A stretch of 64,000 bases of DNA from Sulfurimonadaceae bacterium (GCA_028683835.1 JAQUHB010000001.1:65060-129059); one strand, 5' to 3'. Shown: positions 11,126-52,713, counted from the first letter of the stretch. Translations and numbers: made by a program. Notes: generated by a model not told the origin, from the sequence alone.

Positions 11126-12433
11126 CTACTTCGTAGCAAACTTATAATCTAACATCAACCAAGCAACAGTTTTGTCGTTTGTAAATCCTGTGGCATTTCC
11201 ACCTTTATAAAAGGCACCTTTGATAAGAGCTGTAAGATTGTTGATTTTAGGGATTTTATTGCCATAAGAAACATCAAACTCTGAACCTAAATCTTTCGAT
11301 GTTCCAATATTTTTTTGTGCATCAAATTTATGATAAACAGCCAACACTTTTCCAAATGTTTTCTCAGCATAACCAAGACGTACATTTGCATCATTGAGCC
11401 CCGCATTATTTGTACTTCCTAAAAATACGTCAGCCCATCCATTAAATGCATGCAGTGTAGCAAGTGGAGTCCAAAAACCAATAACAGAACTTCCCTCAGC
11501 TTTCCCAAGTGACTCGTAATTTACACCAGCTAAGAAACTATTGACATTCGCACCTAAATCTAAATTGTAGTATCTTGCATCTGCTTCTGGTTTACCACTG
11601 ATGCCCACTTTAGCACTAGCACCTGATTGTGAACGTCTCTCAAGTGATGGATCCGCTTGTTTTGCATACTCAGCGCGATAGTCAAGTTTGAGTGTACCTG
11701 CATCGATATTGCCAGTTAATGCTGCACCATAAGTATCACTGATAGAAGCTAGCATATAATCATATGCAGTTACATGCAACATGTCGTTTATTTTATAAGT
11801 AGCATGTAACAAAACAGATGAAGTATCATATGCTTCATTCGTGGAAAGACCAGTTGCTGCTGTAGAAAGAAAACTTTGATTTTTAACACCATTGACTCCA
11901 TAAACATACGCACCTAAAAGTGAAAGGTTTTCAATACTATTATCAACTAAAGCAACAGCATCAAAAGTTTGTTTCATCTGTCTCCAGTCTACAGTACCGA
12001 TAAAACGTTGATTATCAAGATTGACATCTTGACGACCTGCACGTACCAGAGTTTTATTGATTTTATAATCTATGTACGCTTGAGTAATACGCGCTTGCTG
12101 TGGATCTGCAACAATATCATATTTTGTATTACCGTCTATGGTTCCATTATAGTTTCTGTCCCCAAAATTACTTACAGCAGAACCTTCTAAAAAAGCAGAA
12201 AGTCCATCAATTTGGAAAAGATCTGCACCTACGCCTAAAGTTGTACGTGCTGTAAAAGCATTAGCAATCTCTTTACCACTGTTTTGTGCATCCACATATT
12301 CATAACGAGGACGAATCTCACCGCTGAACTTTACATTGCTAAGGATATTGATCCCATCATCTGCACTTGCGTTTACATGTATGCTTATCAGTAAACATGG
12401 TACTGCTGCCATAGAAAGTAACATTTTTTTCAT
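11126..12433 (-). CDS. outer-membrane beta-barrel porin (alginate-export-like family)
   Basis: It has a signal peptide (MKKMLLSMAAVPCLLISIHVNASA), alternating beta-strand sequence and a C-terminal aromatic end (MLDYKFATK). The motif RQDVNLDNQRFIGTVDWRQ..QTFDAV is typical of AlgE-like porins. Confidence 0.7.
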   Translation of the reverse strand: MKKMLLSMAAVPCLLISIHVNASADDGINILSNVKFSGEIRPRYEYVDAQNSGKEIANAFTARTTLGVGADLFQIDGLSAFLEGSAVSNFGDRNYNGTIDGNTKYDIVADPQQARITQAYIDYKINKTLVRAGRQDVNLDNQRFIGTVDWRQMKQTFDAVALVDNSIENLSLLGAYVYGVNGVKNQSFLSTAATGLSTNEAYDTSSVLLHATYKINDMLHVTAYDYMLASISDTYGAALTGNIDAGTLKLDYRAEYAKQADPSLERRSQSGASAKVGISGKPEADARYYNLDLGANVNSFLAGVNYESLGKAEGSSVIGFWTPLATLHAFNGWADVFLGSTNNAGLNDANVRLGYAEKTFGKVLAVYHKFDAQKNIGTSKDLGSEFDVSYGNKIPKINNLTALIKGAFYKGGNATGFTNDKTVAWLMLDYKFATK

Positions 12434-12482
12434 TTTTTATTCCTTTTTTCCTTAGTTTTACATAAACTAATTCTATGGGAAA

Positions 12483-12488
12483 AGTATA
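12483..12488 (-). promoter_or_regulatory. -10 candidate TATACT for the porin gene
   Basis: It lies within the 11-mer GATATACTTTT (minus strand, 12490-12480), which is repeated identically upstream of narK. It starts 40 nt from the palindrome centre. Confidence 0.4.
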
Positions 12489-12515
12489 TCTTCTATTGTA
12501 TTGAAGGTAATCAGT

Positions 12516-12540: not shown

Positions 12541-12545
12541 TAATC

Positions 12546-12573: not shown

Positions 12574-12600
12574 TTTAACATATAAATTATGAGGTGTAAG

Positions 12601-14580
12601 ATGATTAAGTCTGTTTGCGGATATTGCGGTGTCGGATGCGGTTTGGAATATGATGAGAAAAAGTTAATAGGCGATGTTACTTATCCTACGAATTTTGGAA
12701 GTGTCTGTTCTAAAGGTGTTTCAGAACTTGTCAGTATTCAAACCGAGTCAAGATTGCTTCGCCCTGTAATGCGAGAAAATATTGATGAGGAGTTGCTTAC
12801 ATGTAAGTGGGAAGATGCACTCACTCTTATAGCAAACAAGATTCAAAACAGCTCCAAAGAGAAGATAGGATTTTATCTCTCAGGTCAGCTTTTAACTGAG
12901 GATTATTACATCGCAAATAAACTTGGCAAAGGGTTTATCGGCACGGGTAATGTCGATACAAACAGCCGTACATGTATGTCAAGTGCGGTTGTAGCGTACA
13001 AAAAAAGCTTAGGTGCTGATTTTGTTCCGCTTCGTATGGATGATATTTTTAAAGCAAATTTGCTGATATTAGCGGGAGCAAATACTGCTGAGGCACATGT
13101 GGTATTTCATAACCGTATCAAAAAAGCAAAAAAAGAGGGTTTAAAAGTAGTCGTCATAGATCCAAGAGATACTGAAACGGCAAAAATTGCAGATATCTAT
13201 TTGCCCATTAAAGTGGGAGGCGATATCGATTTTTTTAATCTCATCTCAAAACGTCTCATTGATGAAGAGTTGTACGATAAAGAGTTTGTAGAAAATCATA
13301 TCAACAATTTTGAGCTTTTAAAAAATAAGTTCAAACGCGCTCCTGTGACTAAAATGCTCAAACGTACGGGTCTCTCTCAAGAGCAGTTTGATGAGTTTTT
13401 CGAACTCTATAGAAATAGTGCAAATATCATAACAGCATGGACGATGGGACTCAATCAATCGGTTCAAGGTGTAGATAAAAATCTCTCCCTTATAAACACG
13501 CATCTCTTAAGTGGCAAGATCTTTAAAGAGGGAAATGGACCGCTGAGCCTCACAGGTCAGCCAAACGCGATGGGCGGACGCGAGGTCGGAGGACTCTCGA
13601 CTATGCTTGCGGTGCATCTTGGTTTTGATAAAGAGAGTATCAAAAAAGTGAGTAAGTTTTGGAAAAGTGAGAATGTAGCGACAAGTGCAGGGCTCACTGC
13701 CACACAAATGCTCGAGGCCAATCTTGATGTGCTCATTATCTGCCACACAGACCCGATCTATCATCTTCCAAATCGAAACAAAATGGAACAGCTTATCAAG
13801 AAAATCCCTTTTGTCGTAGAGATAAACGCTTATGAAAACTCTGAAACATCCAAGTTCGTACATGTAAGGCTTCCGGCTTCTCCTTGGGGCGAAAAAGAGG
13901 GCACACAGACCAATTTGGATAGAACCATTACAAGACAAGAACGTCTTACTCGTCAGTCCATAGACTCTAAACCCGATTGGGAGATATTTCAGTTGATCGC
14001 TCAAGCTCTTGGATATAAAGAGGGTTTCAATTTTAAAAACCCAAAAGAGATATTCGAGGAGTATCAAGAGATGACAAAGTTAAACGGCTATATGGATATC
14101 CACAAAGCCGATTATGATGAACTTTATAACAATGCTTTCATTTGGGGACAGGAGATAAAAGGGTTTTTAACACCCGATAAAAAAGGGAATCTTTTTTATG
14201 TGGAAAACAAACTATTGAGTGAGAAAATCTCTTTGGAATATCCATTTATTTTACTTACAGGACGCACGCGCGACCAGTGGCACAGTGGAACAAAAACAAA
14301 TTTGCCGGCAACTCTTTTAAAGTTTAAAGAGCTGAATTTTTGTGAGATACATCCAGCTGATGCACAAAAACTTGGTATCAAAGATGGCGATGCGATAAAA
14401 GTGATCTCAAAACGAGGCGAGCTCATCACAAAAGCGCTTTTGACTGAAAATATTAATGAAAAAAATCTCTTTATTCCCATCAGTAACAGAGAAGTGAATT
14501 ATTTGACTTTGGATCTGTATGACAGCGAATCTTTAGAACCCGACTATAATCATAGTGCGGTTAAAATTTTAAAAATCTAA
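12601..14580 (+). CDS. nasA: assimilatory nitrate reductase catalytic subunit (molybdopterin oxidoreductase, NasA/NarB type)
   Basis: It has an N-terminal 4Fe-4S motif (CGYCGVGCG...VCSKG), MopB-family length and a C-terminal molybdopterin dinucleotide-binding domain. I chose the start at 12601 because it has a GAGG Shine-Dalgarno 6 nt upstream, unlike the track start at 12589. Confidence 0.88.
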   Translation: MIKSVCGYCGVGCGLEYDEKKLIGDVTYPTNFGSVCSKGVSELVSIQTESRLLRPVMRENIDEELLTCKWEDALTLIANKIQNSSKEKIGFYLSGQLLTEDYYIANKLGKGFIGTGNVDTNSRTCMSSAVVAYKKSLGADFVPLRMDDIFKANLLILAGANTAEAHVVFHNRIKKAKKEGLKVVVIDPRDTETAKIADIYLPIKVGGDIDFFNLISKRLIDEELYDKEFVENHINNFELLKNKFKRAPVTKMLKRTGLSQEQFDEFFELYRNSANIITAWTMGLNQSVQGVDKNLSLINTHLLSGKIFKEGNGPLSLTGQPNAMGGREVGGLSTMLAVHLGFDKESIKKVSKFWKSENVATSAGLTATQMLEANLDVLIICHTDPIYHLPNRNKMEQLIKKIPFVVEINAYENSETSKFVHVRLPASPWGEKEGTQTNLDRTITRQERLTRQSIDSKPDWEIFQLIAQALGYKEGFNFKNPKEIFEEYQEMTKLNGYMDIHKADYDELYNNAFIWGQEIKGFLTPDKKGNLFYVENKLLSEKISLEYPFILLTGRTRDQWHSGTKTNLPATLLKFKELNFCEIHPADAQKLGIKDGDAIKVISKRGELITKALLTENINEKNLFIPISNREVNYLTLDLYDSESLEPDYNHSAVKILKI

Positions 14581-15838: not shown

Positions 15839-15854
15839 AGTTTCGATTTTATCT

Positions 15855-15881
15855 GTAAAGAGGCTTTTTTCACCTCTTTAC
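15855..15881. terminator. perfect 9-bp stem hairpin between convergent genes
   Basis: The sequence is GTAAAGAGG-CTTTTTTCA-CCTCTTTAC, located between the stops at 15838 (+) and 15909 (-). Confidence 0.6.
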
Positions 15882-15908
15882 ATCATGAAAAGTGTTTGGT
15901 TGTAATGT

Positions 15909-16376
15909 TTATCTAAAGTCGTTATATATATAAGCCGGTTGGTTTGGTAGCTTTTTCATTTCAGCTTCAAAAAACTGTTTCAATGTTTCTTTTTGATCTT
16001 TGTTGAGATCTGCTTCTTTATGCATTAACAGGTAACTAGTTTTTGGCATAGTGCCGTGATCTAGGAGTTGAATCGCACGTTTGAGACGTTGTGCTTTTAC
16101 TTTTGGATCCATATTTGCCCAATCTGAGAAGTTTAGCGCTTTACGTCCATCATTGATATGGTCTTCCATCATCCAAGATACTGGAGAAATATGGCTATAC
16201 CAAGGGTATTTTGTTTCATTTGAGTGACAGTCGTAGCATGAAGGTTTGAGAATATTCATAACCTTGTTATCCGCTTGAAGCGTAACTGTTTCATCTACTT
16301 TTGGATTTGTAAAATCCGGTCTAATAAACTGTATCGCAATTGCAACAGCAATGAGTGCATATAATAGTTTTATCAT
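15909..16376 (-). CDS. haem-binding-domain protein (membrane anchored)
   Basis: It has an N-terminal TM helix and a CxxCH motif in the context CYDCHSNETKYPWYSHISPVSW...GRKALNFSDW, which is typical of the Haem_bd family. Confidence 0.7.
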   Translation of the reverse strand: MIKLLYALIAVAIAIQFIRPDFTNPKVDETVTLQADNKVMNILKPSCYDCHSNETKYPWYSHISPVSWMMEDHINDGRKALNFSDWANMDPKVKAQRLKRAIQLLDHGTMPKTSYLLMHKEADLNKDQKETLKQFFEAEMKKLPNQPAYIYNDFR

Positions 16377-16442: not shown

Positions 16443-17228
16443 CTATGGATATTGAATATTTATCTCACATGTTTGGGCAGTTTTAATGACAAACTTGTAT
16501 TTTCCTTTTACTAACGGAGCTTTGATATTCCAAGGGTTGTAGCCTGTATTTACTCGTTTATTATCCAAAGTAACTATTTTCATCGACGCACAAGCTTTGT
16601 TATTTGCCTTTATAAATCCATCTTGATTGGTTTCAAAAAGTCTTACAATCTCTTTTGGATTATATTCAAATGTTGTAGTTCCTCTAACTATTTGTTTATC
16701 AAAAAGTTCACCCAAATCCTGTTTTTGAGGTGTTTTGATACTTTCTGTGTTCTTGTCATCTGTGCTTTGTTCTTTAGCTTCTTCGTTTATCTCTTCTTGG
16801 CTGATTTGAGGGGTTTTTGCAATTATGAGTTGCGCTCTATTTTCATAATCATACAAAAGTATATATCTCATTTTCAGATCATGAGTTGGTCTTGTAAACT
16901 GTGTGCTTTTGATTATCTCTTCTGTAAAAGCATCGATTTCTGGATTGTTGGCGTGTACTAAAAAATGTATATTTTTTATTTCTAGATTATCTGTAAGTGT
17001 AAATTCTATAACATTTTTATCTTTACATGTAAGCTTGTTTAATCGTTCTTGAAGTTTGATACTAGCCATTAAAACAGCATCACTATTTATCTCTTTGTTA
17101 TCTGTCATATATTTTATTTCTTCTTGAGTTAAATTGACGTTTTTATATAAAGCCTTGATGTTCTGAAGAACAAGTAGTTGTGCATGCAGAGCTGTAAAGA
17201 AAAAGATTCCTAAAATAAATATTTTCAA
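16443..17228 (-). CDS. secreted hypothetical protein (possible TonB-C-like N-terminal domain)
   Basis: It has a signal peptide (MKIFILGIFFFTALHAQ), an acidic linker and a C-terminal beta-rich domain. It sits 66 nt upstream of the haem-binding protein gene on the same strand. Confidence 0.5.
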   Translation of the reverse strand: MKIFILGIFFFTALHAQLLVLQNIKALYKNVNLTQEEIKYMTDNKEINSDAVLMASIKLQERLNKLTCKDKNVIEFTLTDNLEIKNIHFLVHANNPEIDAFTEEIIKSTQFTRPTHDLKMRYILLYDYENRAQLIIAKTPQISQEEINEEAKEQSTDDKNTESIKTPQKQDLGELFDKQIVRGTTTFEYNPKEIVRLFETNQDGFIKANNKACASMKIVTLDNKRVNTGYNPWNIKAPLVKGKYKFVIKTAQTCEINIQYP

Positions 17229-18213: not shown

Positions 18214-18215
18214 AA

Positions 18216-22641: not shown

Positions 22642-24129
22642 TTGACTGTTTATTTGGTGATAAAAAAGAGAGAAAGTTTTTTAGGAATAAAGCCGCTTAG
22701 TCCAAGCAAACTTAAAACAGCAATCATCTTGCTTGGCGCGAGTTTTATCAAGCTTGCTCAAGTACTTGCTACTCGTGCAGATTTTTTTACGCCTGAATAT
22801 CTTGAAGAACTTAAAGAACTTCATGATCAGCTTCCGGCGATGAGTGAAAGAGAGTTTGAGACAGTCTATCACAGGGCTTTTGAAACAGATGATTTTAAAA
22901 GTTTTGAAAAAACTCCTATTGCTTCAGCATCTATCGGTCAGGTGCATGCTGCGTATTTACAAGATGGTACTAAAGTAGCTGTCAAGCTCAGACGCTTGAT
23001 AATTGCAGACCAAGTGAAAGCCGATATAAAAATCATTAATTTTTTCAATATTCTTTTTCGCCCGCTTTTTTCGCATACGACAAAAAACTCTATCGAAGCC
23101 GTTATCTCAGAGTTTTCAAAGATGATACTACAAGAAGTGAGTCTCACCCATGAACTAGGGAACTTAGTAAAGTTTTCATCGGTATATAAAGAGAGTGGCA
23201 TCAGATTTCCTCTTGCCTATAAAGAGCTTTGCAGTGACGATGCGATTGTTATGAGCTATGAAGAGGGATTTCGTTTTGATGACAAAGAGAATATTTTTAA
23301 GTACAAAATAGATTTTAAAAAAATTATTGCTAAACTTGTAGATTTTTACACTCAGCAGATGCTTATAAAGGGATATTTTCACGCTGATCCGCATCCGGGA
23401 AATTTACTTGTGACAAAAGAGGGTGAACTCATTTTACTTGATTTTGGAATGGTGAAGACTGTACCAAACAATTCTCGTGTAGCGATCATTGAACTTATCA
23501 AAGCGGCAAACGAACAAGATTATGAGCGTTATATTGAAGCAAGTAAGAAGCTTGGAACAGTTGCGTATGAAGCTCCCACATCAGAATTAGCAGAGTTTGC
23601 ATCTAAGATGTTTGAGATATTTTCAAATGAAAATCTTACAAGTGAATCGATGCAGCAACTTGCTTTTGAAGTGATGGAATCAACGCGTGATCTGCCCTTT
23701 AAACTTCCAAGCGATGCGATCTATATTCTTCGTGTAAGTGCCATCGTGGAGGGACTTGGAACGACCTATATAGAAAATTTCAATGGAATCAAAGATATTT
23801 TACCGATTTTGCAGAAAAATATTCCAAAAGCACTTGGGGCAAAAGAGAGCATTTTAGAAACAATCATAGAGGAGATCAAAGATATCCCTTTTATTGCAAA
23901 AGATTTTAAAACGGCGATTAAAAAGATCAGTTCGGATTCCTTACATGTAGAGCTTTCAAACGATCAGCTAGACTGGATAAAGAGAGATCTCAGATCGAGT
24001 GCAAAATCTTATGCAATCTCATTTTCTTTGATGCTTGGCGGAGTTTTTATACTTTTGGCAGAGAAAGATTTAAAAGAGATTGCCATTGCAATTTTTGTCT
24101 TTGGACTTGCGAGAATTTTGTATAAATAG
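22642..24129 (+). CDS. ABC1/UbiB-family atypical kinase with C-terminal TM helices
   Basis: Family motifs are present (FIKLAQVLATRADFFTPEYLEELKELHDQLP, ASIGQVHAA, VAVKLRR, FHADPHPGNLLV, LLDFGM). The start is uncertain: TTG at 22642, TTG at 22654 or GTG at 22657, with no nearby ATG. Confidence 0.85.
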   Translation: MTVYLVIKKRESFLGIKPLSPSKLKTAIILLGASFIKLAQVLATRADFFTPEYLEELKELHDQLPAMSEREFETVYHRAFETDDFKSFEKTPIASASIGQVHAAYLQDGTKVAVKLRRLIIADQVKADIKIINFFNILFRPLFSHTTKNSIEAVISEFSKMILQEVSLTHELGNLVKFSSVYKESGIRFPLAYKELCSDDAIVMSYEEGFRFDDKENIFKYKIDFKKIIAKLVDFYTQQMLIKGYFHADPHPGNLLVTKEGELILLDFGMVKTVPNNSRVAIIELIKAANEQDYERYIEASKKLGTVAYEAPTSELAEFASKMFEIFSNENLTSESMQQLAFEVMESTRDLPFKLPSDAIYILRVSAIVEGLGTTYIENFNGIKDILPILQKNIPKALGAKESILETIIEEIKDIPFIAKDFKTAIKKISSDSLHVELSNDQLDWIKRDLRSSAKSYAISFSLMLGGVFILLAEKDLKEIAIAIFVFGLARILYK

Positions 24130-25387: not shown

Positions 25388-26414
25388 AAAAAAGCTTATC
25401 ATTGTTGGAGCGGGTCTTAGCGGCTTGTATCTTGCATCACGTTTAGAAAAAGAGTTTGATGTGACTTTGCTCGAAGCAAGAGAACGTGTCGGCGGAAGGA
25501 TTTACTCGCAAGATGGGCACGATCTTGGTCCCTCTTGGATCTGGCCGCATCATACAGATATGCAAGCTCTCGTCAAAAGCTTAGGCTTGAAACTTTTTCG
25601 ACAATATGACAAAGGTTATGCTCTTTTTGATACACAAAACAGAGTCGAGCATTTTACCTCTCCACCATCATCCCCTTTGGCTAGAGTGGAGGGTTCTTTG
25701 TCAAAACTGATAGAAAAACTTTATACAACTCTTACAAATACGCAAATGATTTTAAACCAAGAACTCTTACATGTAGAGTATCAAAAGAGGAACATAGTCG
25801 TAACAACACAAAATAAATCTTATGAGAGTGATTATCTTATCCTTACTTTGCCGCCAAGAATTTGTGTAAAACTGACTTATAATCCACCTTTGCCACAAGC
25901 TTTAAAAGAAAAAATGCAAACCACTCAGACGTGGATGGGCAACAGCGCAAAATGTGTTGTGGAGTTTGGCTCAGCAATTTGGAGAGAACGAGGACTCAAC
26001 GGTTTTGTATTCTCAAATCAAGGGCCACTCAGTGAGATCCATGATGCTTGCACAGACTCAAAAGCTGCACTTTTTGGTTTTATGAGTCTGCACCAAAAAG
26101 ACATTTCGCACGTAAACGCGGATGATTTAAAACTTAAAGTGACAGAACAAATGGTACGGGTTTTTGGCATTGATCCAAGGGAGATACAAGCCATCTATTT
26201 TGTCGATTGGAAAGAGGAACGTTTTACTTCTGTGGCTGAAGATAAAAAGTCACTCAGTTCTCATCCAGACTATGGCATAGATGCACACCATTTTGATGGA
26301 CAACTACTTTTTAGCTCCACGGAATTTTCTCATAAAGAGGGTGGTTATCTCGAAGGTGCACTTATCAACGCCAAAAAAACAGCACAGACTCTTTTAGATT
26401 ATAAAAATCTATAA
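25380..26414 (+). CDS. flavin amine-oxidase-like FAD-dependent oxidoreductase
   Basis: It has an N-terminal dinucleotide fold (LIIVGAGLSGLYLASRL...LEARERVGGRI). Its start overlaps the upstream GGDEF gene by 8 nt. Confidence 0.75.
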   Translation: MNKKKLIIVGAGLSGLYLASRLEKEFDVTLLEARERVGGRIYSQDGHDLGPSWIWPHHTDMQALVKSLGLKLFRQYDKGYALFDTQNRVEHFTSPPSSPLARVEGSLSKLIEKLYTTLTNTQMILNQELLHVEYQKRNIVVTTQNKSYESDYLILTLPPRICVKLTYNPPLPQALKEKMQTTQTWMGNSAKCVVEFGSAIWRERGLNGFVFSNQGPLSEIHDACTDSKAALFGFMSLHQKDISHVNADDLKLKVTEQMVRVFGIDPREIQAIYFVDWKEERFTSVAEDKKSLSSHPDYGIDAHHFDGQLLFSSTEFSHKEGGYLEGALINAKKTAQTLLDYKNL

Positions 26415-35376: not shown

Positions 35377-35438
35377 GGCTTACATCTAAATAAAATAGAT
35401 ACAATTTGAACGATAGATTTAACAACTATGGAGTAACA

Positions 35439-38305: not shown

Positions 38306-39244
38306 ATGAAAAGAGCAATTTTACTTTTAAATATGGGTGGACCCAATAATCTTGACGAAGTGAGTGTTTTTTTACACAATATGTTTAATGATAAAAATGT
38401 TATCAACGCACCAAAAATTATTCGTATGTTTGTGGCAAAACTCATTATTTTTATGCGCCTTCATGAGGCAAAAAGCAACTATAAAGCAATAGGTGGAAAA
38501 TCTCCGATAGGCGGATATACACAACAGCTCATCGATGCACTAAGTTTACAGGTAGATGCTACTGTTCATATGGTAATGCGCTATACTCCTCCATTTGCAA
38601 AAGATACACTGAAAAATCTTCAAGAAGTTGATGAGATCTACGCAATCCCTCTTTATCCGCATTACTCTACAACGACTACACTCTCAAGCATGGAGGATCT
38701 GCAAAACTCTATGAAACAATTAGGCATCAAAGCAAAACTTAAAACAATCGATAAATATTACAAAAATGAAAACTACAACAAAGCGATCGTCGAGAGAATA
38801 AAAGAGTCTTTGGGTGATGCGGACGCGAGTGAGTATGAACTTATATTTTCAGCCCATGGACTTCCTCAGAGAATCATCGACAAGGGTGATCTTTACCAAA
38901 GAGATATCAAGTATAATGTTTTTTATGCAAGAAAAGCTTTGATGCAAGCGGGGATAGAGTTTCACAAAACCCATCTTGCTTATCAATCCCGTCTTGGACC
39001 ATTAGAGTGGATTCGTCCTTATTTGGAAGATAAACTCAAAAGTTTAAAAAAGAAAAAAGTAATAATCTACCCGATAGCTTTTACTGTCGATAACTCAGAA
39101 ACGGAGTTTGAACTCGAAATCGAGTATCGAGAAAAAGCTGAGGAGATGGGATTTGTGGATTACAGAGTCTCAAAAGTGGTTAACAATCATCCTCTATTTG
39201 TCGAGAGCTTAAAAGAGATCTATGAGGAGTTAAAACAGTGTTAG
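38306..39244 (+). CDS. hemH: ferrochelatase
   Basis: The N-terminus is AILLLNMGGPN. The length and overall pattern (MRYTPPF, LYPHYS, FSAHGLP) fit ferrochelatase. Confidence 0.9.
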   Translation: MKRAILLLNMGGPNNLDEVSVFLHNMFNDKNVINAPKIIRMFVAKLIIFMRLHEAKSNYKAIGGKSPIGGYTQQLIDALSLQVDATVHMVMRYTPPFAKDTLKNLQEVDEIYAIPLYPHYSTTTTLSSMEDLQNSMKQLGIKAKLKTIDKYYKNENYNKAIVERIKESLGDADASEYELIFSAHGLPQRIIDKGDLYQRDIKYNVFYARKALMQAGIEFHKTHLAYQSRLGPLEWIRPYLEDKLKSLKKKKVIIYPIAFTVDNSETEFELEIEYREKAEEMGFVDYRVSKVVNNHPLFVESLKEIYEELKQC

Positions 39245-40659
39245 AATATGCAGTCGTAGGCTCAGGAGTAGGTGGATGTTCCATCGCTGCATATCTTGAC
39301 GCAAAAGGGTATAAAACTGTACTTTTTGAAAAAGATTCTAATCTTGGCGGATGCAGTTCTACATTTACTCGAAACTCTTACATGTACAACACAGGCGCTA
39401 CCACTTTGGCTGGGTATAAAGATGGGCATATCGTGAAATCTCTTTTTGACTCTATCGGCTATAAACCAAAACTCTTAGCAACGGATCCCGCAATTGTGAT
39501 TATACAAAATGGTAAAACTTCTCCAAGATACAGAGATTTGGAGAAGTTTTTAACAGTTGTAGAGCAAAACTATCCACACCCAAAAAATAGAGAGTTTTGG
39601 ACGCTTGTGTATGAATTAAACAAGAAATTTTACTCGATTGATGGATATTATTATTCAAATAGCTCTTTTTTAAAAAAAGCACTTTCGCTTTTGAGTTATA
39701 CACCCATTTTTTTGAAGTTTTTTAGATATTTTTCTGTGAATGCAAAAACTTTTTTAGATCACTTCTTTGGCGGAATAGACAAAGAGTATTTAGATTTTTT
39801 AGAGGCTCAGATTATGATCGTCGCACAGGCAAAAAGTTCTGAGATAAATTTCTTTACCTGTGCGCTTGCTCTTGGATATACCTTCAATGAAACACATTAT
39901 GTTTATGGAGGAATGGGCGCGCTTTTCGATGGAATGAGTGCAGATATGAAAGATGTGAGAGTGAACTCTGAGATTAAAAAAATAGAAAAAAAAGAGGGAT
40001 ATTACAAGCTTTACACAAAGGATGAGGTCATCGAGGCAAAGAATGTGATTTTAAACTCGACGGTGTATGCAAGTGCAAAACTTTTCGATGAAAGTTCGAT
40101 ACAAAATTACTATAAAAAATATGAAAAACTCGACAATCGTCAAAGCTCTTTTATGCTTTACGTGACGATTAAAAGTGATGTGGAATTTGCGCATCATTAT
40201 CAGATTATTCAAGATGAAAAGTTTGAAGGTAGCATCTCAAATGCACTCTTTGTTTCATTTTCAGATAAAGATGATGAGCAAATTGCGCCAAAAGGTTACT
40301 ACTCTATCACAGCTTCCATCCACACAGATGTAAGGTTTTGGCAAAAAGATGCAGATTATAAGGCAAAAAAAGAGAGATTAAAAAACTTACTGCTAGAATC
40401 TCTTATGAAAAATCTTGATATCCAAACATCTCAGATTATAGATTGTATTAGTGCAACTCCGAGTACATTTGCTAAATATATAAGCCGTTCTCAGCTTGGA
40501 GGTAATGCGATTACTATGAAAAACTTTTTACCTTTTCTGCCATCAAATGACACACCTATAAAAGGACTTTACAACGTAGGCGACACTGTCTATGCCGCGC
40601 AAGGCTGGCCTGGTGTAATGCTTGGTGTAAACAATCTCAAAAAGCTTTTACATGTATGA
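39238..40659 (+). CDS. FAD-dependent oxidoreductase of the phytoene-desaturase (CrtI) / amine-oxidase superfamily
   Basis: A GxGxxG fold lies at the extreme N-terminus (YAVVGSGVGGCSIAAYL...FEKDSNLGGC), which forces the GTG start at 39238. That start overlaps hemH by 7 nt. Confidence 0.75.
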   Translation: MLEYAVVGSGVGGCSIAAYLDAKGYKTVLFEKDSNLGGCSSTFTRNSYMYNTGATTLAGYKDGHIVKSLFDSIGYKPKLLATDPAIVIIQNGKTSPRYRDLEKFLTVVEQNYPHPKNREFWTLVYELNKKFYSIDGYYYSNSSFLKKALSLLSYTPIFLKFFRYFSVNAKTFLDHFFGGIDKEYLDFLEAQIMIVAQAKSSEINFFTCALALGYTFNETHYVYGGMGALFDGMSADMKDVRVNSEIKKIEKKEGYYKLYTKDEVIEAKNVILNSTVYASAKLFDESSIQNYYKKYEKLDNRQSSFMLYVTIKSDVEFAHHYQIIQDEKFEGSISNALFVSFSDKDDEQIAPKGYYSITASIHTDVRFWQKDADYKAKKERLKNLLLESLMKNLDIQTSQIIDCISATPSTFAKYISRSQLGGNAITMKNFLPFLPSNDTPIKGLYNVGDTVYAAQGWPGVMLGVNNLKKLLHV

Positions 40660-41662
40660 TATAGCTTTACATGTAAAGCTCAAAGACTGGCTTTATATTC
40701 TCATATTTGGACTTGTTTTTGGCTCTTTTTTATCTGCTTTGGGTTATGTGCTTTTAGAAAAAGATTGGCTCAACGGTGCTTTATATGGAGTGCTACTCGG
40801 CTTTAGTATCACTTTTTTATCTTTGGTTTTTATCTCTTTTATGAATCATTTTGTGTTACCAAAAGTGAGTCCTAAATACTGGCTCATTTTGGCGATAGTT
40901 TTCTCCTTTTTATCAGGATTTTTTGGGACACTTCTCAGTGTATTTGTAGCACAAAAAACGGGGATTGAACTCATTGCATTATTTGAAACAAGTTCGGTGG
41001 GTATTGCTGCAACTATCGGTATTTTGACCTATCTTTTAGGTGCGCTTTTATACAGATTTGTACGGATGCGAAATGAAAAAGAGTTAGTTGATGGCAACTA
41101 TATCAAAAGCAGACTCTCTTCTCTTGAGACTCAGTTAAATCCTCATTTTTTATTTAACGCACTTAACTCCATTGCTGAACTTATCCACACCGATGTGAAC
41201 AAAGCAGAAGAAGCTATACTCAAAGTCTCCTCATTTTTACGAAATACGATGAGTGAAGAAGCCCATATCAGCATAAAAAATGAGCTCTTACATGTAAGGG
41301 ATTATGTGGAACTTGAAAACATCCGTTTTACAGATAAAATTCTCTTACATGTAAACGGATCATTTCCCCCGTACAAGATCCCGAAATTTTCTATCCAGCT
41401 TTTGGTTGAAAATGCTATCAAGCATGGTTTTATACAAAAAGAGAAAAATCTAAATATCGAGATCTCTTTTGATGTGCAAAAAAAGGTACTCATAGTAAAA
41501 AATGATGGGACTCCGATGAAGAGCAATACGTTTGGAATCGGTCTTACAAATCTGAATCAAAGATTGGAACTTTTATGCAAAGGGTTTCTAGAAGTAGGTG
41601 ACAAAGAAACACCAACATTTTATATACATTTAGGAGATTGTCATGAAAATACTCGTAGTTGA
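40652..41662 (+). CDS. LytS/YehU-type sensor histidine kinase
   Basis: It has an N-terminal multi-TM region, the His_kinase signature LETQLNPHFLFNALNSI, and HATPase_c motifs (ENAIKHG, GIGLTN). It overlaps the upstream gene by 8 nt. Confidence 0.85.
   Translation: MYDIALHVKLKDWLYILIFGLVFGSFLSALGYVLLEKDWLNGALYGVLLGFSITFLSLVFISFMNHFVLPKVSPKYWLILAIVFSFLSGFFGTLLSVFVAQKTGIELIALFETSSVGIAATIGILTYLLGALLYRFVRMRNEKELVDGNYIKSRLSSLETQLNPHFLFNALNSIAELIHTDVNKAEEAILKVSSFLRNTMSEEAHISIKNELLHVRDYVELENIRFTDKILLHVNGSFPPYKIPKFSIQLLVENAIKHGFIQKEKNLNIEISFDVQKKVLIVKNDGTPMKSNTFGIGLTNLNQRLELLCKGFLEVGDKETPTFYIHLGDCHENTRS
40663..40680. repeat. 18-bp perfect palindrome AGCTTTACATGTAAAGCT (longest copy of the iterated TTACATGTAA motif)
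   Basis: Read directly from the sequence. It lies 11 nt inside the kinase ORF. A second copy, AGCTTTTACATGTATGA at 40643-40659, spans the stop/start overlap. Confidence 0.8.
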
Positions 41663-44842: not shown

Positions 44843-47656
44843 ATGATAAAAATATATGGTGCACGTGAAAATAATTTAAAAAATATCTCTTTGGAAATAC
44901 CGAAAAATAAGCTTGTCGTATGTACTGGCTTAAGTGGAAGCGGAAAGTCCACACTTGCGTTTGATACATTGTATGCTGAGGGACAAAGACGCTACATCGA
45001 ATCACTCTCTTCGTATGCAAGACAGTTCTTAGACCGTATTGGAAAACCTGATGTAGACAAGATAGAAGGACTTACTCCAGCTATTGCCATAGATCAAAAA
45101 ACAACTTCTAAAAATCCTCGTTCAACAGTGGGAACGATTACTGAAATTTACGATTATCTTCGTCTTTTGTATGCTCGTGTGGGTGTGCAACACTGTCATC
45201 AATGCGGCAAAAAGATCACGCAGATGAGTGCTGAGGATATCATTAACGAAGTGTTAAAACTTCCAGATGGCGCAAAAGTAGTCATTTTATCTCCCATTGC
45301 AAGAGAGAAAAAAGGCTCATTTGGGGAGATTCTAGAATCTCTTGTACAAAAAGGGTATGTCAGAGCGATGATTGATGGTGTTATGGTCAGGCTTGATGAG
45401 GAGATAGAACTTTCTAAAACTAAAAAACATACCATTAAAGTCGTTATAGACCGTCTTGTAATTAGCGATGACAACAAAGAGCGTATTGCTCAGGATGTTG
45501 AAAAAGCACTCAAACAAAGTTATGGTGAAGTTGAAATAGATATCTTAAATCATGAAGAGTTAGAACTAAAAGATGCGAGTATCCATTACAGCGAGCACAA
45601 CGCATGTTTTGACTGTAAGATCAGTTTTGATGAGCTTGAACCTCTTTCTTTTTCCTTTAATTCACCAAAAGGCGCATGCCCGGAGTGTGATGGTTTAGGT
45701 GTTCGTTATGCGCTTGATAATGACAAGATTATTGACGGTGACCTTACTATTGAAACTGGAGCTGTTAAAATCGTATATGGCTTTAACAAGGGCTACTATT
45801 TTACTTTTCTCAAAGGGTTCTGCGTAGAAAACAAGATTGATATCAAAGTTCCATTTTCTGAGCTTGAAGAGTATCAGAAAAAAGCGATTTTACACGGTGG
45901 CATAGACGAGATAACCTTCCTTTGGAAAGGTCATCCGGTAAAGCGTGTTTGGCCGGGAATAGTAAAAATCGCCTACGATATGTTCAAAGATGATAAAGAA
46001 CTTGCTGATTATATGAGTGAAAAGGTTTGTAATGTCTGCCATTCACATCGACTTAAAGCTGAAAGTTTAGCTGTAAAAGTTTCAGATCACGGTATTGCGC
46101 AAATATTGGATATGCCTATCAACAAAAGCTACGAGTGGTTTAAAAGTGAGGATAATTTTTCTCATCTGAGTGATAAAAACAGGATGATCTCTGCACCTAT
46201 TTTAAATGAGATACGTGAGAGGTTATACTTTTTATTTGACGTTGGTCTTGGATATATCACACTTGGACGAGATGCCAGAACTATCAGTGGCGGGGAAGCA
46301 CAGCGCATCCGTATTGCTTCACAGATCGGAAGCGGTTTGACGGGTGTCATGTATGTGCTTGATGAGCCGAGCATCGGACTTCATGAGAGAGATACTTTAA
46401 AACTCATTCGTACACTTCGCTCTTTGCAAGAAAAGGGCAATAGCGTGATCGTAGTCGAACACGACAAAGAAACGATTGAAAATGCCGATTACATCGTAGA
46501 TATTGGGCCTGGTGCCGGAAAGTTTGGCGGTGAGGTCGTGTTTGCGGGAACATATGAAGAGCTGAAAAAGGCTGATACTTTGACGGCTGATTATATGACG
46601 GGACGCAAAGATATCAAATACTTTTACAGACGACCGCAAGAGAAGTTCATAGAGATAAAAAATGTGACCTTGAATAATATTAACGATCTCAGCGCAAAAA
46701 TCCCGCTCAATAACTTTACTTGTATCACCGGAGTAAGCGGAAGCGGGAAAAGTTCTTTGATCCTTCAGACGCTTTTACCGACAGCCAGAGAGATACTCAA
46801 TCATGCAAGAAAAGTAAAAAAAATCGCAGGTGTCGAGATAGAGGGACTTGAACATGTAGATAAAGTGATCTATCTAGATCAAAGTCCCATCGGTCGCACT
46901 CCAAGAAGTAATCCTGCAACTTATACGGGTGTTATGGATGAGATTCGTAATCTTTTTGCAAAGACAAAAGAGGCAAATATCCGCGGATATACAAGTTCAA
47001 GATTTAGCTTTAACGTCAAAGGCGGACGTTGTGAGAAGTGTCAGGGTGAGGGCGAGATCAAGATAGAGATGCATTTTTTACCCGACATTATGGTCAAATG
47101 TGATTCATGTAAAGGGACTCGTTATAACTTCCAAACACTCGAAGTTCTTTATAAAGGGAAAAGTATCTCTGATGTTTTAAATATGAGTGTCGCCGAAGCT
47201 TTAGAGTTTTTTGATCCGATTCCAAAAATCAAGATAAAAATGCAGACGCTTTTTGATGTTGGTCTTGGTTACATCACACTTGGACAAAATGCAACAACAC
47301 TTTCAGGCGGGGAAGCACAACGTATCAAGCTTTCTAAGGAACTTAGCCGCAAAGACACAGGAAAAACACTCTATATCCTTGATGAGCCAACAACGGGATT
47401 ACATTTTGATGATGTCAACCGCTTAACAAAAGTGCTTCATAATTTCGTAGAACTTGGAAACAGTGTTCTTGTCATCGAACATAATCTTGATATGATAAAA
47501 AATGCTGATTATGTCATAGATATGGGACCTGAGGGTGGAAGCGGCGGTGGAAATATCATCGCTATGGGAACTCCAGAAGAAGTATCACAAAGCTATAAAG
47601 AGAATGGAAGCTATACGGGTGAGTATCTTGCAAAAGAGCTTAGTAGGTACAAATGA
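44843..47656 (+). CDS. uvrA: excinuclease ABC subunit A
   Basis: It is 937 aa with two ABC modules ([27 protein letters not shown] twice) and zinc-finger Cys pairs. Confidence 0.97.
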
Positions 47657-48945
47657 GAATATTTTTTTATTTTTTAATCGCTTTTTTCTTTATTGGATGT
47701 GCAAACACTGTTGAAGACGTAAAACCAGCAGAGCCACCGGTCACAGAAAAAGTGACCAAGGCTCCAGAGTTAAAACAAGTGCAAGTTGAGGAAAAAACAA
47801 AAGTTCAAGAACTCCAACCGCTAGCTATAGCAAAAGCTGAAATAACAAAAGTTGAAGCGGTAAAAATTCCAAATGTTAAGACTACGCACGCTCTGCGTGT
47901 TAAGAGTATGAAGATCAAATCAAGCCCGCTGAAATATGTTAGTAAGGATCTTTCAAAAACAGATGATATTATCTCTGAACTTCCGCAAAATTCTTCAAAC
48001 ATTAGTGAAGTTGTACAGTTTGACAATGAAAATTTTGATGAAGTTGTTGATATTTTTATCAACAACTGTAAGAGTGCGACAACACGAAAGATGTATGGTT
48101 CTCTTTGTGACAGTGCTTTACATGTAAGCGATAAAAAGGTATTTATTAAAAAGAATTTTAAACTCTATAAAATTGTAGATAATCAAAAAGACGAGGGTGT
48201 TTTAACTGGTTATTATGAGCCTGAACTTCACGGTTCTTTGACGAAGCATGATAAGTATATCTATCCAATTTATCAAAAACCTGTAAATATGGGTGTGGAA
48301 TCTGCTGTTTTGAATACTGAAACAAACAGTAGTACAATACAAAATAGTTCAAGAGCAGATTTTAATAATCTTAATAATCCTGCTTTATGTTATGTGGATA
48401 ATAAAATTGATGAGTTTTTTCTTGAAATACAAGGTTCAGGACGTGTAAATCTAGATACGAATAAAACGCTTTATGTAGGTTATAACGGTACAAATGGACA
48501 AAAATACACATCAATTGGAAAATATTTGATAGCGAAAGGATATATGAGTCAAGATCACATGTCATTACAAGATATTAAGGCGTGGGCACATAAAAATCCA
48601 GATAAAATAGATAGTGTGTTAAATCAAAATGCGAGAGTTGTCTTTTTTAAAAAAAGAGATAATACCAATGTTACGGGTTCTCTGGGTATACCTTTAACTC
48701 CCATGCGCTCGGTTGCAGTTGATAGTGCATATGTTCCGCTTGGAAGTATGCTTTTGATAGATGCACAAGATTATAAACATTCTATCAAAAATATTGTATT
48801 TGCACAAGATAGAGGTGCGGCTATTAAATCCGCAGTGCGAGCGGATCTTTTTACAGGTTATGGCAAAGAAGCACTTGCAATCGCAGGAAATCTCAAAGCA
48901 AAACTGAAAATGTGGATATTCTTGCCAAAAGTACAGATGCAATGA
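47653..48945 (+). CDS. mltA: membrane-bound lytic murein transglycosylase A (lipoprotein)
   Basis: It has a lipobox (FFIGCAN), an MltA domain (LTGYYEPELHGS, EIQGSGRV) and a 3D domain (DRGAAIKSAVRADLFTGYG). Its start overlaps the uvrA stop (ATGA). Confidence 0.85.
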   Translation: MRIFFYFLIAFFFIGCANTVEDVKPAEPPVTEKVTKAPELKQVQVEEKTKVQELQPLAIAKAEITKVEAVKIPNVKTTHALRVKSMKIKSSPLKYVSKDLSKTDDIISELPQNSSNISEVVQFDNENFDEVVDIFINNCKSATTRKMYGSLCDSALHVSDKKVFIKKNFKLYKIVDNQKDEGVLTGYYEPELHGSLTKHDKYIYPIYQKPVNMGVESAVLNTETNSSTIQNSSRADFNNLNNPALCYVDNKIDEFFLEIQGSGRVNLDTNKTLYVGYNGTNGQKYTSIGKYLIAKGYMSQDHMSLQDIKAWAHKNPDKIDSVLNQNARVVFFKKRDNTNVTGSLGIPLTPMRSVAVDSAYVPLGSMLLIDAQDYKHSIKNIVFAQDRGAAIKSAVRADLFTGYGKEALAIAGNLKAKLKMWIFLPKVQMQ

Positions 48946-49511: not shown

Positions 49512-49516
49512 AATAT

Positions 49517-49540
49517 CCTTGAGATCTCAAGGTTTATTTT
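49517..49540 (+). terminator. rho-independent terminator of recR
   Basis: A perfect 16-bp palindrome (CCTTGAGATCTCAAGG, 49517-49532) is followed by TTTATTTT. It abuts the stop of the convergent GGDEF-EAL gene. Confidence 0.7.
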
Positions 49541-51453: not shown

Positions 51454-52048
51454 GAGACACTTCTGCCTTTGTATTTTTACTTGATAACATTTGCATTATA
51501 TCCTCTGTTATCTTAGTTTTATTCAATGGATGTGTAGCATATATCTTTTTGAGTTTCAGATGCCCAGCTATATTTTCAAGAAGAAAAATGTTGTCAGTAT
51601 GATTGAGTTCTTCTTTATCTTCAAGACTTTTTGAAAAGAAGACTCCAAAGTTTCTGTCTATCTTAAATAGCTCTTTTTGGTTAAGATAAACACCTTTGAA
51701 ATCTTTATTAAAATATTTTGCAAAGAGTTTTGGAGCAGTTATTTCTAACTCTGGAGTCAGATTTATAAAATAGATATCTATTTTATCTCTGATATTATCG
51801 AATTCTTTTGATCCATATAAGTTTGCCAAGTTTTGTAATATAGGCATACAAACTTTTTCACATCCAACGTATCCAAAAAACACTAAGACGACATATTTAT
51901 CACTTTGAATATAGTTGGCTTGGATCTCTTTATCGACTGAAATAACACCCTTTGTTCTTGAACTAAAAAGGAGTGAACCTACTATGGGAACTAACAAAAA
52001 AAAAGCAAGCATCAAAATGCCTAATAGAGCTTTATATTTACTTTTCAA
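51446..52048 (-). CDS. SCO1/SenC-family thioredoxin-fold protein (membrane anchored)
   Basis: It has an N-terminal TM helix, a CxxxC motif in Sco context (FFGYVGCEKVCMPIL) and a downstream conserved His (NHTDNIFLL). Its stop overlaps the GGDEF-EAL start by 8 nt. Confidence 0.7.
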   Translation of the reverse strand: MKSKYKALLGILMLAFFLLVPIVGSLLFSSRTKGVISVDKEIQANYIQSDKYVVLVFFGYVGCEKVCMPILQNLANLYGSKEFDNIRDKIDIYFINLTPELEITAPKLFAKYFNKDFKGVYLNQKELFKIDRNFGVFFSKSLEDKEELNHTDNIFLLENIAGHLKLKKIYATHPLNKTKITEDIMQMLSSKNTKAEVSHE

Positions 52049-52713
52049 ATTGGATGATTCCGATTATCACTGAGGAATTATTATATTTAATATCTTCGGT
52101 ATAAAGGATTTCTTTTACATGTAGGACAGATTTACGTGATGTCACCATCTTATGTTCAAAAATAAGTGGCTCATGCGAAAGTTTGACCTCTTGTAATTTT
52201 TTCAAAAAAATAGATATCCCGCGTTTGGGGTGAAAACTGTTTGATAAGATCAATATTTGGCTCAATATCTTGTATTTCATAGACACCAGTATAATGTTTT
52301 TTGTCTAAAATAGTATTCATATTGAGATTATTAATACCAGAAAAGAATACAGGAATATCTTCCTTTTCTAAGAAGATTTGATTGTAGTTTTCATATACAA
52401 AAGTTAAAGCATCATCATTTGTAACATATATTAGATCAGGCGAGGCATTTGTATATTTCATATGAAGATAGTTTAAAAAATTATTTTTATATTCTTGAGT
52501 TAATTTGACTCGTTTTGTATCAAGATATTCTGTATAAAAAGTGAAATTTTTATCGCTTTTATTAAGTGTCGAGACAAAAGAGTTGTGTTGCTTCTTGGTC
52601 CATTCATATTCTTGTGAATATGAATGGAGGATAAAAACATTAACTTTTTCTGTCGCAAATACAGAAAAAACTAAGATCAAAAGAAGAGTAACAATTTTTA
52701 TAAAAAGCTCCAA
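52038..52713 (-). pseudogene. periplasmic substrate-binding-like protein, apparently split by a +1 frameshift at a T7 (plus-strand A7) run
   Basis: The 180-aa ORF (52171-52713) has a signal peptide and resembles the ABC_sub_bind type. It stops 31 nt after the homopolymer at 52204-52210. Removing one T joins it in frame to the 82-aa ORF frame, which then runs to 52038 and overlaps the Sco start. Confidence 0.45.

Follow-up and report, generated by a model that had tools for sequence, protein, structure and literature searches.

A palindrome iterated far beyond chance in the genomes of some Campylobacterota, possibly of the HIP1 or DNA-uptake-sequence type

What writes one and the same palindrome again and again into the genes of a bacterium? 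The question is raised by a stretch of 64,000 nucleotides from a Sulfurimonadaceae bacterium (GCA_028683835.1 JAQUHB010000001.1:65060-129059, hereafter referred to as the window; 64 kb, 36% G+C, 96% coding, 57 open reading frame (ORF) products), in which the octamer TACATGTA, with the fuller form YYTTACATGTAARR, occurs 16 times. An initial annotation, made by eye, had listed 29 ACATGT hexamers, 16 octamers with their start positions and seven perfect 10-mers, and all of these counts proved exact on recount. The longer forms numbered 14 for TTACATGTA, eight for TACATGTAA, seven for the perfect 10-mer TTACATGTAA and two for CTTTACATGTAAAG, and the perfect 18-mer AGCTTTACATGTAAAGCT, also noticed by eye, was recovered at 40663-40680. 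A 5' T or a 3' A was present at 15 of the 16 copies, the sole copy with neither being that at 12969..12976. All the copies are listed in Table 1.

Chance or base composition as the source of the word was ruled out by Markov models of orders 0-4, by dinucleotide shuffles and by two codon-aware shuffles. Against the 16 copies observed, the Markov expectation was 2.19, 0.95, 1.15, 0.88 and 1.61 for orders 0, 1, 2, 3 and 4, respectively. Shuffling of synonymous codons within genes, with the proteins kept (500 shuffles), yielded 4.3 copies on average and never more than 10, and shuffling of codon order 2.05 on average and never more than 6; the observed/expected ratio in the window did not, then, fall to near 1 after codon-aware shuffling, as it should have done had the initial annotation been mistaken. 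The excess was approximately 18-fold over the order-3 Markov model and 4- to 8-fold over the codon-aware shuffles. The 10-mer TTACATGTAA was expected 0.99 and 0.12 times under the synonymous-codon and codon-order shuffles (seven observed), and with up to one mismatch it gave 21 matches against 3.76 +/- 1.82, a number reached by none of 100 dinucleotide shuffles. In the unbiased ranking of all window 8-mers, TACATGTA came first (z=16) and words overlapping it came next, and the top 10-mers all contained it. The inner words behaved differently: ACATGT (29 vs 15-20 expected) was raised only by the copies inside the longer word, its 13 occurrences outside the octamer being at or slightly below the same expectation, and CATG was found 213 times against about 212 expected by simple arithmetic from the base counts.

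The word is not peculiar to the window. A scan without prior assumption was made of 80 loci, each surrounding a UbiD homologue of a GTDB species representative; by UbiD homology all of them are Campylobacterota, three bearing non-Campylobacterota record titles. TACATGTA was the top 8-mer in five of these loci, L022 ('Arcobacter sp.' MAG-3, CP093061), L025 (Sulfurospirillum UBA12182), L029, L039 and L078, and the second in L028. The most extreme was L039, where at 51% G+C 10 copies, eight of them full 10-mers, were found against 0.16 expected. Pooled motif-rich loci gave 77 copies vs 3.1 expected in 204 kb, and pooled motif-poor loci five vs 5.9 in 483 kb; nearly all loci of Arcobacteraceae, Sulfurimonas, Sulfurovum and Sulfuricurvum lacked the word or held it at chance level. 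[quoted passage not shown] On the UbiD tree the motif-rich genomes stand at no fewer than four separate places, with at least three lineages besides the Hydrocurvibacter group to which the window belongs, and the extended consensus is identical in all of them. Such a patchy, polyphyletic trait would be expected of a recognition module gained and lost, and not of base composition. The initial annotation had proposed a phenomenon like HIP1 (the highly iterated palindrome of cyanobacteria) or like an uptake sequence, and that proposal is supported, the same word heading the 8-mer ranking in several further genomes of Campylobacterota.

A consensus was built on 69 copies, to which six motif-rich loci contributed besides the window. 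The preferences outside the core were T at -1 (72%), a pyrimidine at -2 (83%) and C at -3 (38%, against a background of about 17%), position -4 being flat, and they were mirror-symmetric on the two sides. The consensus is therefore the dyad YYT-TACATGTA-ARR, with CTTTACATGTAAAG as the commonest form. In the pooled motif-rich DNA, core variants one base off were about as frequent as expected (observed/expected 0.3-1.8), while the perfect word was in the large excess given above, indicating that recognition is sharp at all eight core positions.

The constraint was claimed by the initial annotation to lie on the DNA and not on protein or codon usage, and this was confirmed by the occurrence of the word in all frames and on both strands and by its survival of the codon-aware shuffles. 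Coding DNA is overlapped by 15 of the 16 window copies, 14 of them lying wholly inside one gene and that at 40649 across a gene junction; two of the carrier genes are on the minus strand. The reading is (L/I/V)-H-V for 10 copies, x-T-C-x for four and Y-M-Y for one. The earlier tally by frame was right in its three frames, two strands, four T-C and one Y-M-Y, and one too high in its eleven LHV (Leu-His-Val), because the copy at 52116 is intergenic. Frame 0 of the full 10-mer is rare, since a TAA stop would arise. Gene location was also assessed on the pooled set of eight motif-rich loci with 77 copies, for which gene calls were crude: 74% of the copies were inside genes, the 57 coding copies being divided 28:19:10 among the frames, and 20 of the 77 were intergenic, a roughly 4-fold enrichment relative to the approximately 6% of non-coding DNA.

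The proteome bears the mark of this constraint. LHV was the most over-represented tripeptide of the 57 ORF products (14 vs 2.8 expected), and eight of these 14 were encoded by TTA-CAT-GTA, a codon combination expected in 5%; the imposition of LHV on unrelated proteins, likewise noted at first sight, is borne out by these counts. In the UbiD alignment, the Cys at the 37186 site is invariant in 80 orthologues and the window has Thr in place of the usual Asp or Glu, and L039 has L-H-V where the others have M-E-V; these replacements were seen in motif-bearing genomes at variable columns. Taken together, the residue replacements in UbiD and the rare LHV codons show that the word prevails over the choice among synonymous codons and, where a position is tolerant, over that of the amino acid. 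The carrier genes in the window are functionally unrelated and the copies are not concentrated in promoters. The operator of a transcription-factor regulon was rejected as a candidate on the grounds of the coding overlap of 15 of the 16 window copies and of an extrapolated number of hundreds to more than 1000 sites per genome.

The same observations bear on the explanation that the word acts as an RNA-level signal (at UACAUGUA) or a peptide-level signal, or is a by-product of codon or amino-acid composition. A palindrome gives the same RNA word in either gene orientation, so strand symmetry alone cannot exclude an RNA role, and L-H-V is read in about half of the coding copies (28/57 pooled, 10/15 in the window). 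The three frames, however, give three unrelated peptides, intergenic copies exist too, the excess survives shuffles that keep both protein sequence and codon composition, LHV is written with its rare codon combination, the flank preferences are mirror-symmetric as for double-stranded DNA, and a scan of the window against Rfam gave a single tRNA and nothing else. Peptide selection for LHV was rejected on the frames, the intergenic copies and the codons, and the explanation as a whole is largely refuted and must be regarded as very improbable.

Next to be considered is how the copies arise. Between the window and its relatives, orthologous motif positions differ by point substitutions only, with no insertions or deletions, and the copies are thus made and lost by point mutation and are not a mobile repeat. 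The site at 40649 may be taken as an example, in which TTGGATGTA in one relative (lineage B, see below), TTAGATGTA in another (lineage A) and TTACATGTA in the window form a series, the first change being synonymous and the second Asp to His in the penultimate codon; the series suggests that the motif was approached in steps. A mobile element, such as miniature inverted-repeat transposable elements (MITE), repetitive extragenic palindromes (REP) or the ends of insertion sequences, of which the copies would be remnants or target sites, could be thought of because REP and MITE typically end in short palindromes and because some of the intergenic copies in L028 lie within a duplicated unit of about 1.3 kb. 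Similarity among the copies ends, however, three bases past the core, the flanks beyond being unrelated, and the copies are therefore not parts of a MITE- or REP-type element; in addition, copies stand in frame inside conserved genes, and no gene for a transposase or a REP-associated tyrosine transposase (RAYT) was found in the window. A REP/MITE-type repeat, which would be intergenic, 20-40 bp or more in length and shared beyond the core, was rejected on the 74% of intragenic copies and the end of similarity at +/-3. A mobile origin is largely refuted and hardly tenable.

The relatives used for comparison of orthologous sites belong to the Hydrocurvibacter group, of which the window genome is a metagenome-assembled member (Sulfurimonadaceae/Thiovulaceae; proteins MDD2356328-377). 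The LysS of the window shares a 90% cluster with that of Hydrocurvibacter mobilis HSL3-2, an isolate which is in culture and whose genome of 2.24 Mb is complete (CP147917.1); the genus has been described (PMC12403661). Syntenic DNA was taken from cluster members because the 80 UbiD loci share no neighbour genes with the window. The density was 0.25 copies of TACATGTA per kb in the window, 0.76 in lineage A (L082; 87% identity to the window), 0.42 in lineage B (L203-L210 and L212; 87-92% identity; density from L203 and L209, with five copies in the 21 kb of L212) and 0.33 in H. mobilis (L211; 75-80% identity), and lineage C (L213; 91% identity) had three copies in 21 kb. All sister-lineage DNA retrieved was motif-rich (0.33-0.76 copies/kb), and the density was lowest in the window lineage.

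The per-site conservation was compared with that of 8-mers in general. Between the window and lineage B (48 kb aligned, 89% identity), 10 of 14 window sites were kept vs 46% of 8-mers (P=0.05), and of the sites of lineage B, 10 of 18 were kept in the window (P=0.27). Third-codon positions within window sites were changed in 3 of 36 cases vs a background of 24% (P=0.015). At greater depth, between lineage B and H. mobilis (77% identity), 4/8 and 4/6 sites were shared vs 15% (P=0.02 and 0.006, respectively). These results altogether suggest that the sites are only weakly protected in the short term, with near-neutral turnover, and kept above background at depth. High density combined with weak conservation of each site fits drive, or selection on density, better than a site-specific function. 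Several losses in the window lineage could be polarised, and together with the lowest density they leave room for the view that the force is weak or has been lost there; a weak or lost drive in this lineage may be considered, the numbers being small.

Both losses and sister copies bear on the distribution along the window. The initial annotation had described the copies as confined to the central 40 kb and as excluded from conserved housekeeping blocks on either side. The confinement holds within the window, where neither a copy of the octamer nor a 10-mer with up to one mismatch was found outside 11770-52124 (range test, P=0.005), and fails as a general property of housekeeping DNA. In the right block, perfect copies were found in lysS, glyA, trpE and aroE of lineage B and H. 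mobilis, and three relics were recognised in the window itself (Table 1), which contradicts the claimed exclusion; the central block, moreover, also houses uvrA, recR, hemH, ubiD, pdxH and a photolyase gene. Housekeeping exclusion as a general rule was rejected on the evidence of the right block, but stands for the left one (gltBD to dusB, 12 kb), where 0, 1 and 0 copies were found in the three lineages examined. Strong protein constraint is a plausible conjecture for the poverty of the left block.

For the interpretation of these findings, known systems of iterated words provide the frame. HIP1 occurs in cyanobacteria at 300-2700/Mb with observed/expected ratios of 55-228 (PMC4390886), and the Campylobacterota word, at 250-760/Mb and a ratio of about 18-62, likewise reaches hundreds per Mb and tens-fold excess. 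Both are octameric palindromes with optional palindromic extensions and a central 4-6 bp sub-site of methyltransferase type; both are mostly intragenic, in several frames, spread by substitution and carried by the majority of a clade's members, though not by every one. The word is not HIP1 itself, however, being TACATGTA and not GCGATCGC or a derivative of it: the two are unrelated in sequence, that of Campylobacterota being AT-rich with a core of CATG vs GATC/CGATCG. HIP1 is nearly phylum-wide and has cognate methyltransferases, whereas TACATGTA belongs to another phylum, is polyphyletic at the genus level and had none detectable in about 330 kb of motif-rich DNA; HIP1 sites were reported to be clearly conserved (PMC5861425), and TACATGTA sites appear only weakly so between close relatives. 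The proteins behind the two are presumably different.

The second group of analogues comprises the uptake signal sequences (USS) of Pasteurellaceae and the DNA uptake sequences (DUS) of Neisseriaceae, words of 9-12 bp at about 0.5-1 per kb (0.25-0.76 per kb for TACATGTA). They resemble the present word in lying inside genes where frame and position tolerate them, with measurable consequences for the proteome, in intergenic enrichment and in lineage specificity, and they accumulate by point mutation together with biased uptake and recombination, that is, by molecular drive (PMC1939737). They differ in being asymmetric, present in both orientations and often as inverted pairs in terminators, whereas TACATGTA is palindromic and not terminator-associated. 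The third analogue lies within the same phylum: as summarised in 10.1101/2024.09.10.611283, the palindrome RAATTY of Campylobacter jejuni (orphan methyltransferase CtsM) is read only when methylated, and serves self-DNA discrimination in natural transformation. RAATTY is a palindromic signal as well, but is a degenerate 6-mer found about every 60 bp mainly by composition, whereas TACATGTA extends over 10-14 bp far above composition. In full-text searches of the literature, no description of TACATGTA as an iterated element and no highly iterated palindrome of Epsilonproteobacteria/Campylobacterota was found, and the word is apparently an undescribed counterpart of HIP1 and the uptake sequences, with an unrelated sequence and in another phylum.

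The interpretation that we tentatively favour, while granting it somewhat less than an even chance, is that TACATGTA is a genome-wide, hyperabundant word of the HIP1/uptake-sequence type, generated in situ and serving as a tag of self DNA, with a drive linked to transformation or recombination. A dimeric, sequence-specific DNA-binding or DNA-modifying protein would read the dyad of 12-14 bp, and uptake, protection or recombination would favour fragments or alleles that bear the word. Such a protein, with an activity that biases how alleles are transmitted, is the most economical inference from the dyad symmetry, the origin in place by substitution, the densities like those of HIP1 and uptake sequences, the reshaping of proteins, the enrichment at weakly constrained places and the patchy phylogeny. 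Substitutions that create the motif would then spread, through drive linked to transformation or homologous recombination, because of this preference for word-bearing DNA; the drive might depend on methylation of the central CATG/ACATGT, and a recognition module gained here and lost there would account for the patchy distribution. A drive of this kind is favoured because the density and the effects on the proteome match those of uptake sequences (PMC1939737), because C. jejuni, of the same phylum, uses a methylated palindrome as an uptake signal, as summarised in the work cited above, and because HIP1, the closest analogue, has been tied, by experiment and by phylogeny, to methylation-dependent transformation. 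Methylated HIP1 raises transformation up to 100-fold (10.1101/2024.09.10.611283), and HIP1 abundance co-varies with the DNA-uptake machinery (10.64898/2026.06.24.733823). In a more specific form, which is possible but rather doubtful, the word would be an independent, horizontally mobile self-DNA tag in some environmental Campylobacterota, with a dimeric receptor or modification enzyme reading CTTTACATGTAAAG during natural transformation, perhaps only with a methylated CATG, and with about 1,000 copies written per genome and protein sequences altered in the process.

Exchange of DNA within the genus can be seen directly. Lineages A and B are 98-99% identical save for tracts of 200-480 bp dense in single-nucleotide polymorphisms, and lineage A has one, about 460 bp long (L082:9317-9800 vs L203; window 40617-41080), that is window-like in a lineage-B background, indicating that short-tract homologous exchange is active in the genus between lineages about 13% apart. 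This tract brings a perfect CTTACATGTAAAG where lineage B has TTTGCATATAAAG. A gene for a PilT/T2SSE-type ATPase (62930-63853) is the only gene of the window that bears on the matter; together with the motif-bearing tract it makes up the only hints toward uptake, which are circumstantial.

Several points weigh against the self-tag interpretation. Between close relatives, losses of the word at least equalled gains, so there is no direct sign of drive acting now in the window lineage. The link between recombination tracts and the motif is anecdotal, with two of eight copies in about 11% of the sequence (P~0.2). The word is palindromic, whereas classical uptake sequences are asymmetric. The motif-rich DNA examined amounts to about 0.3 Mb of sampled loci, and in about 330 kb of it no recognisable DNA methyltransferase, no Vsr-type gene or obvious receptor gene and no cognate helix-turn-helix protein was found; for methyltransferases, all ORFs of the motif-rich loci were screened for the catalytic-motif patterns [DNS]PP[YFW] and PCQ with ENV, and the sole match (L028 14072-14818) was discarded as a family-2 glycosyltransferase. 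Competence, finally, is not mentioned in the description of Hydrocurvibacter (PMC12403661).

The role of methylation could also be a purely mutational one. By this account, which we consider unlikely, an orphan methyltransferase would act at CATG/ACATGT and a Vsr-like or methyl-directed repair would convert near-cognate sequences, the copies being a mutational by-product. A model of the repair type was reportedly put forward by Elhai for HIP1. A parallel exists in the very short patch (VSP) repair of Escherichia coli, in which a methyltransferase-linked process shifts word frequencies inside genes, with an excess of CCWGG and a deficit of CTAG, and the core CATG/ACATGT is a typical target of Type II methyltransferases. 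HIP1 is, in addition, co-extensive with CGATCG and GATC methyltransferases, and its origin by methyl-directed repair has been proposed (PMC4390886). Two of the present results agree with repair, namely the origin of copies through point substitution and the near-neutral turnover of each site, as a purely mutational process would give. On the other hand, the deamination product TATATGTA/TACATATA is not depleted in the motif-rich DNA (observed/expected 0.99), nor was any one-off variant strongly so, at the low power of about 200 kb; CATG is at expectation and ACATGT outside the octamer is not enriched (counts above); and the specific stretch, of 12-14 bp, exceeds the known sites of Type II methyltransferases in length. 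The lack of a methyltransferase or Vsr gene in the same 330 kb tells against repair too. VSP effects are well under 10-fold and accompanied by depletion of the substrate word, whereas here an 18- to 60-fold excess stands beside one-off words of which none is depleted. Helicobacter pylori and C. jejuni are not known to possess the MutS1/MutL/MutH mismatch repair, which may be counted as a further point against this account.

The dyad symmetry of the consensus over 14 bp, as for a homodimer, leads to another explanation, that the word is bound by an abundant protein, chromosome-structuring or nucleoid-associated, with the sites selected for collective density or spacing. The core is a perfectly alternating, flexible pyrimidine-purine 8-mer with runs of T and A on its flanks. 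The copies are clumped, close pairs being commoner than the density predicts: they were found at 19 and 57 bp in the window, twice at 33 bp in L028 (within the duplicated unit) and once at 43 bp in L029 (13392/13435), the last being the only pair that flanks a hairpin, most copies being intragenic. The poverty of the left block in three lineages and the range test given above can be counted on the same side, as can the periodicity and conservation reported for HIP1, for which a nucleoid role has been proposed (PMC5861425).

A viral contig (L104:340-550, IMGVR_UViG_3300012979_000276; 28.5% G+C) carries five ACTTTACATGTAAAG within 180 bp; TTGACA hexamers and additional CTTTACA half-sites lie in between, and a GC-rich stretch with GCGATCGC comes after them. 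From its arrangement, this array looks like an operator or iteron array made of the same dyad, which can therefore plausibly serve as a protein-binding site. Other viral contigs with CTTTACATGTAAAG mostly have single chance copies. The locus L155, with seven copies of CTTTACATGTAAAG, belongs to an isolate genome, of which it forms an inovirus-like and defence region without an informative methyltransferase.

Known structuring sites, that is parS and the sites bound by Noc and SlmA as well as matS, are likewise dyads of 12-16 bp, often intragenic and regionally uneven. They number, however, tens per genome and are not known to reshape codons or amino acids, whereas about 600-1700 sites per genome are extrapolated for TACATGTA, 10- to 100-fold more. 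Individual sites, besides, are barely above background in conservation between close relatives, the right block is filled in the sisters and empty in the window, which speaks against a position-specific function, and a patchy polyphyletic distribution would be unusual for a core system of chromosome organisation. A structuring role appears improbable to us.

Returning to the self-tag interpretation, its consequences may be stated. Highly iterated palindromes have so far been known essentially from one phylum, the cyanobacteria, and the function of HIP1 is being linked to methylation-dependent transformation only now, 30 years on. If correct, the interpretation would make TACATGTA a second HIP-type system, evolved separately from that of cyanobacteria, and an independent test case in a phylum where a methylated palindrome gates DNA uptake. 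The patchy distribution at the genus level suits phylogenetic profiling for the responsible protein, and the cultured, fully sequenced host H. mobilis HSL3-2 lets the function of a HIP-type palindrome be tested directly. That LHV has become the most over-represented tripeptide illustrates how strongly a force at the DNA level can reshape proteins. As a practical handle, the motif might be included in transforming DNA for genetic tools in sulfur-oxidising Campylobacterota.

Table 1. Copies, relics and near-copies of the palindrome in the window, with their reading in protein and their state in related lineages
Feature	Positions	Gene or location	Reading	State in relatives
TACATGTA copy (TTACATGTAT)	12374..12381	minus-strand Alginate_exp-like porin gene 11126-12433	I-H-V	perfect in window only; lineage B TACATGAA, lineage C CACATGTA
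perfect 10-mer TTACATGTAA	12797..12806	molybdopterin oxidoreductase gene	L-T-C-K	also in lineage B; lineage C TACATCTA
TACATGTA copy (gTACATGTAt)	12969..12976	molybdopterin oxidoreductase gene	R-T-C-M	kept in lineages B, C
TACATGTAA copy	13859..13867	molybdopterin oxidoreductase gene	V-H-V	lineages B, C: one-off CACATGTA
perfect 10-mer	17023..17032	minus-strand gene 16443-17228, function unassigned	L-T-C-K	kept in lineages B, C
TTACATGTA copy	23941..23949	ABC1/UbiB-like kinase gene	L-H-V	
TTACATGTA copy	25767..25775	flavin amine-oxidase gene	L-H-V	
TTACATGTA copy	37186..37194	UbiD-family gene, near 3' end	D-V-T-C-T	kept in lineage B
14-mer CTTTACATGTAAAG	37886..37899	glutathione peroxidase gene	A-L-H-V-K	kept in lineage B
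TTACATGTA copy	39378..39386	CrtI-like oxidoreductase gene	Y-M-Y	kept in all relatives examined
TTACATGTA copy, 19 bp from next copy	40648..40656	end of CrtI-like gene and start of LytS-type kinase gene	L-L-H-V-stop (CrtI-like gene)	window-specific; lineage B TTGGATGTA, lineage A TTAGATGTA
perfect 18-bp palindrome AGCTTTACATGTAAAGCT	40663..40680	LytS-type kinase gene, 5' end	A-L-H-V-K	in lineage A on window-like recombination tract of ~460 bp; lineage B TGCATATA
perfect 10-mer	41288..41297	LytS-type kinase gene	L-L-H-V-R	kept in lineages A, B
perfect 10-mer	41345..41354	LytS-type kinase gene	L-L-H-V-N	kept in lineages A, B despite strongly diverged flanks
perfect 10-mer	48118..48127	MltA gene	A-L-H-V-S	kept in lineage B
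TTACATGTA copy	52115..52123	between SCO1/SenC gene (51446-52048) and 180-aa ORF (52171-52713)		
relic, one-off TACAGGTA	38547..38554	hemH		perfect in lineages A, B
relic, one-off TACTTGTA	46717..46724	uvrA		perfect in lineage B
relic, one-off TACATATA	54748..54755	trpE		perfect TACATGTA in lineage B, H. mobilis
relic, one-off TACATGGA	57029..57036	glyA		perfect in lineage B
relic, one-off CACATGTA	58964..58971	lysS		perfect in lineage B, H. mobilis
one-off TACATGCA	1150..1157	gltB		perfect in lineage B; lineage C CACATGTA
two-off TATATATA	15925..15932			perfect TACATGTA in lineages B, C; symmetric C-to-T and G-to-A differences

The copy at 52115..52123 is the sole intergenic one of the window, and its orthologue in lineage B is coding, being located at the 3' end of an ABC_sub_bind gene that is full-length. 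The adjacent 180-aa ORF is without a Pfam match and sits where lineage B has this ABC_sub_bind gene of 489 aa; relative to lineage B, the window has a deletion of about 840 bp adjoining the motif copy. In the same region, genes are on the plus strand until recR and on the minus strand afterwards (switch at 49511/49534), and the cumulative GC skew reverses at about 53 kb. The turnover of orientation and skew (49500-54000) could be a replication-related switch or an effect of operon orientation only.

The UbiD-family protein of the window (35406-37274) has its nearest homologues in Arcobacteraceae (73-77% aa identity, against about 60% to Sulfurimonas), and its gene neighbours are syntenic with none of the 80 UbiD loci; horizontal replacement of the gene is possible. 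Between the ferritin and haem-binding genes of lineage B, a catalase-peroxidase gene (PF00141; L212:16879-19059) is inserted that is absent in the window (15838-15909) and in lineage C.

Other words were also found to be uneven among the 80 loci. CATG is avoided in L011, L061, L053, L055 and L023 (for instance, 13-23 occurrences in about 20 kb vs about 55 expected), which suggests, as far as word counts can tell, a CATG-specific restriction in these genomes; the motif-rich genomes showed no such avoidance. The non-palindromic 8-mer TGTAAGTG is over-represented in L061, L041 and L050 (Sulfurimonas-type) and in L008 and L010 (Aliarcobacter metagenome-assembled genomes), and is the top 8-mer in L061 (eight copies) and L041 (six) vs 0.4 expected in about 20 kb. 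It has TGTAAG in common with the right half of the palindrome, and 14 of 14 copies are on the strand of the UbiD gene, so that it could be a skewed word like Chi or KOPS (FtsK-orienting polar sequences), or a coding-strand word. The repeated words CGCTAAAC (nine times in L021) and GACAGCGA (12 times in L038) are probably tandem or CRISPR-like arrays, unrelated to the palindrome.

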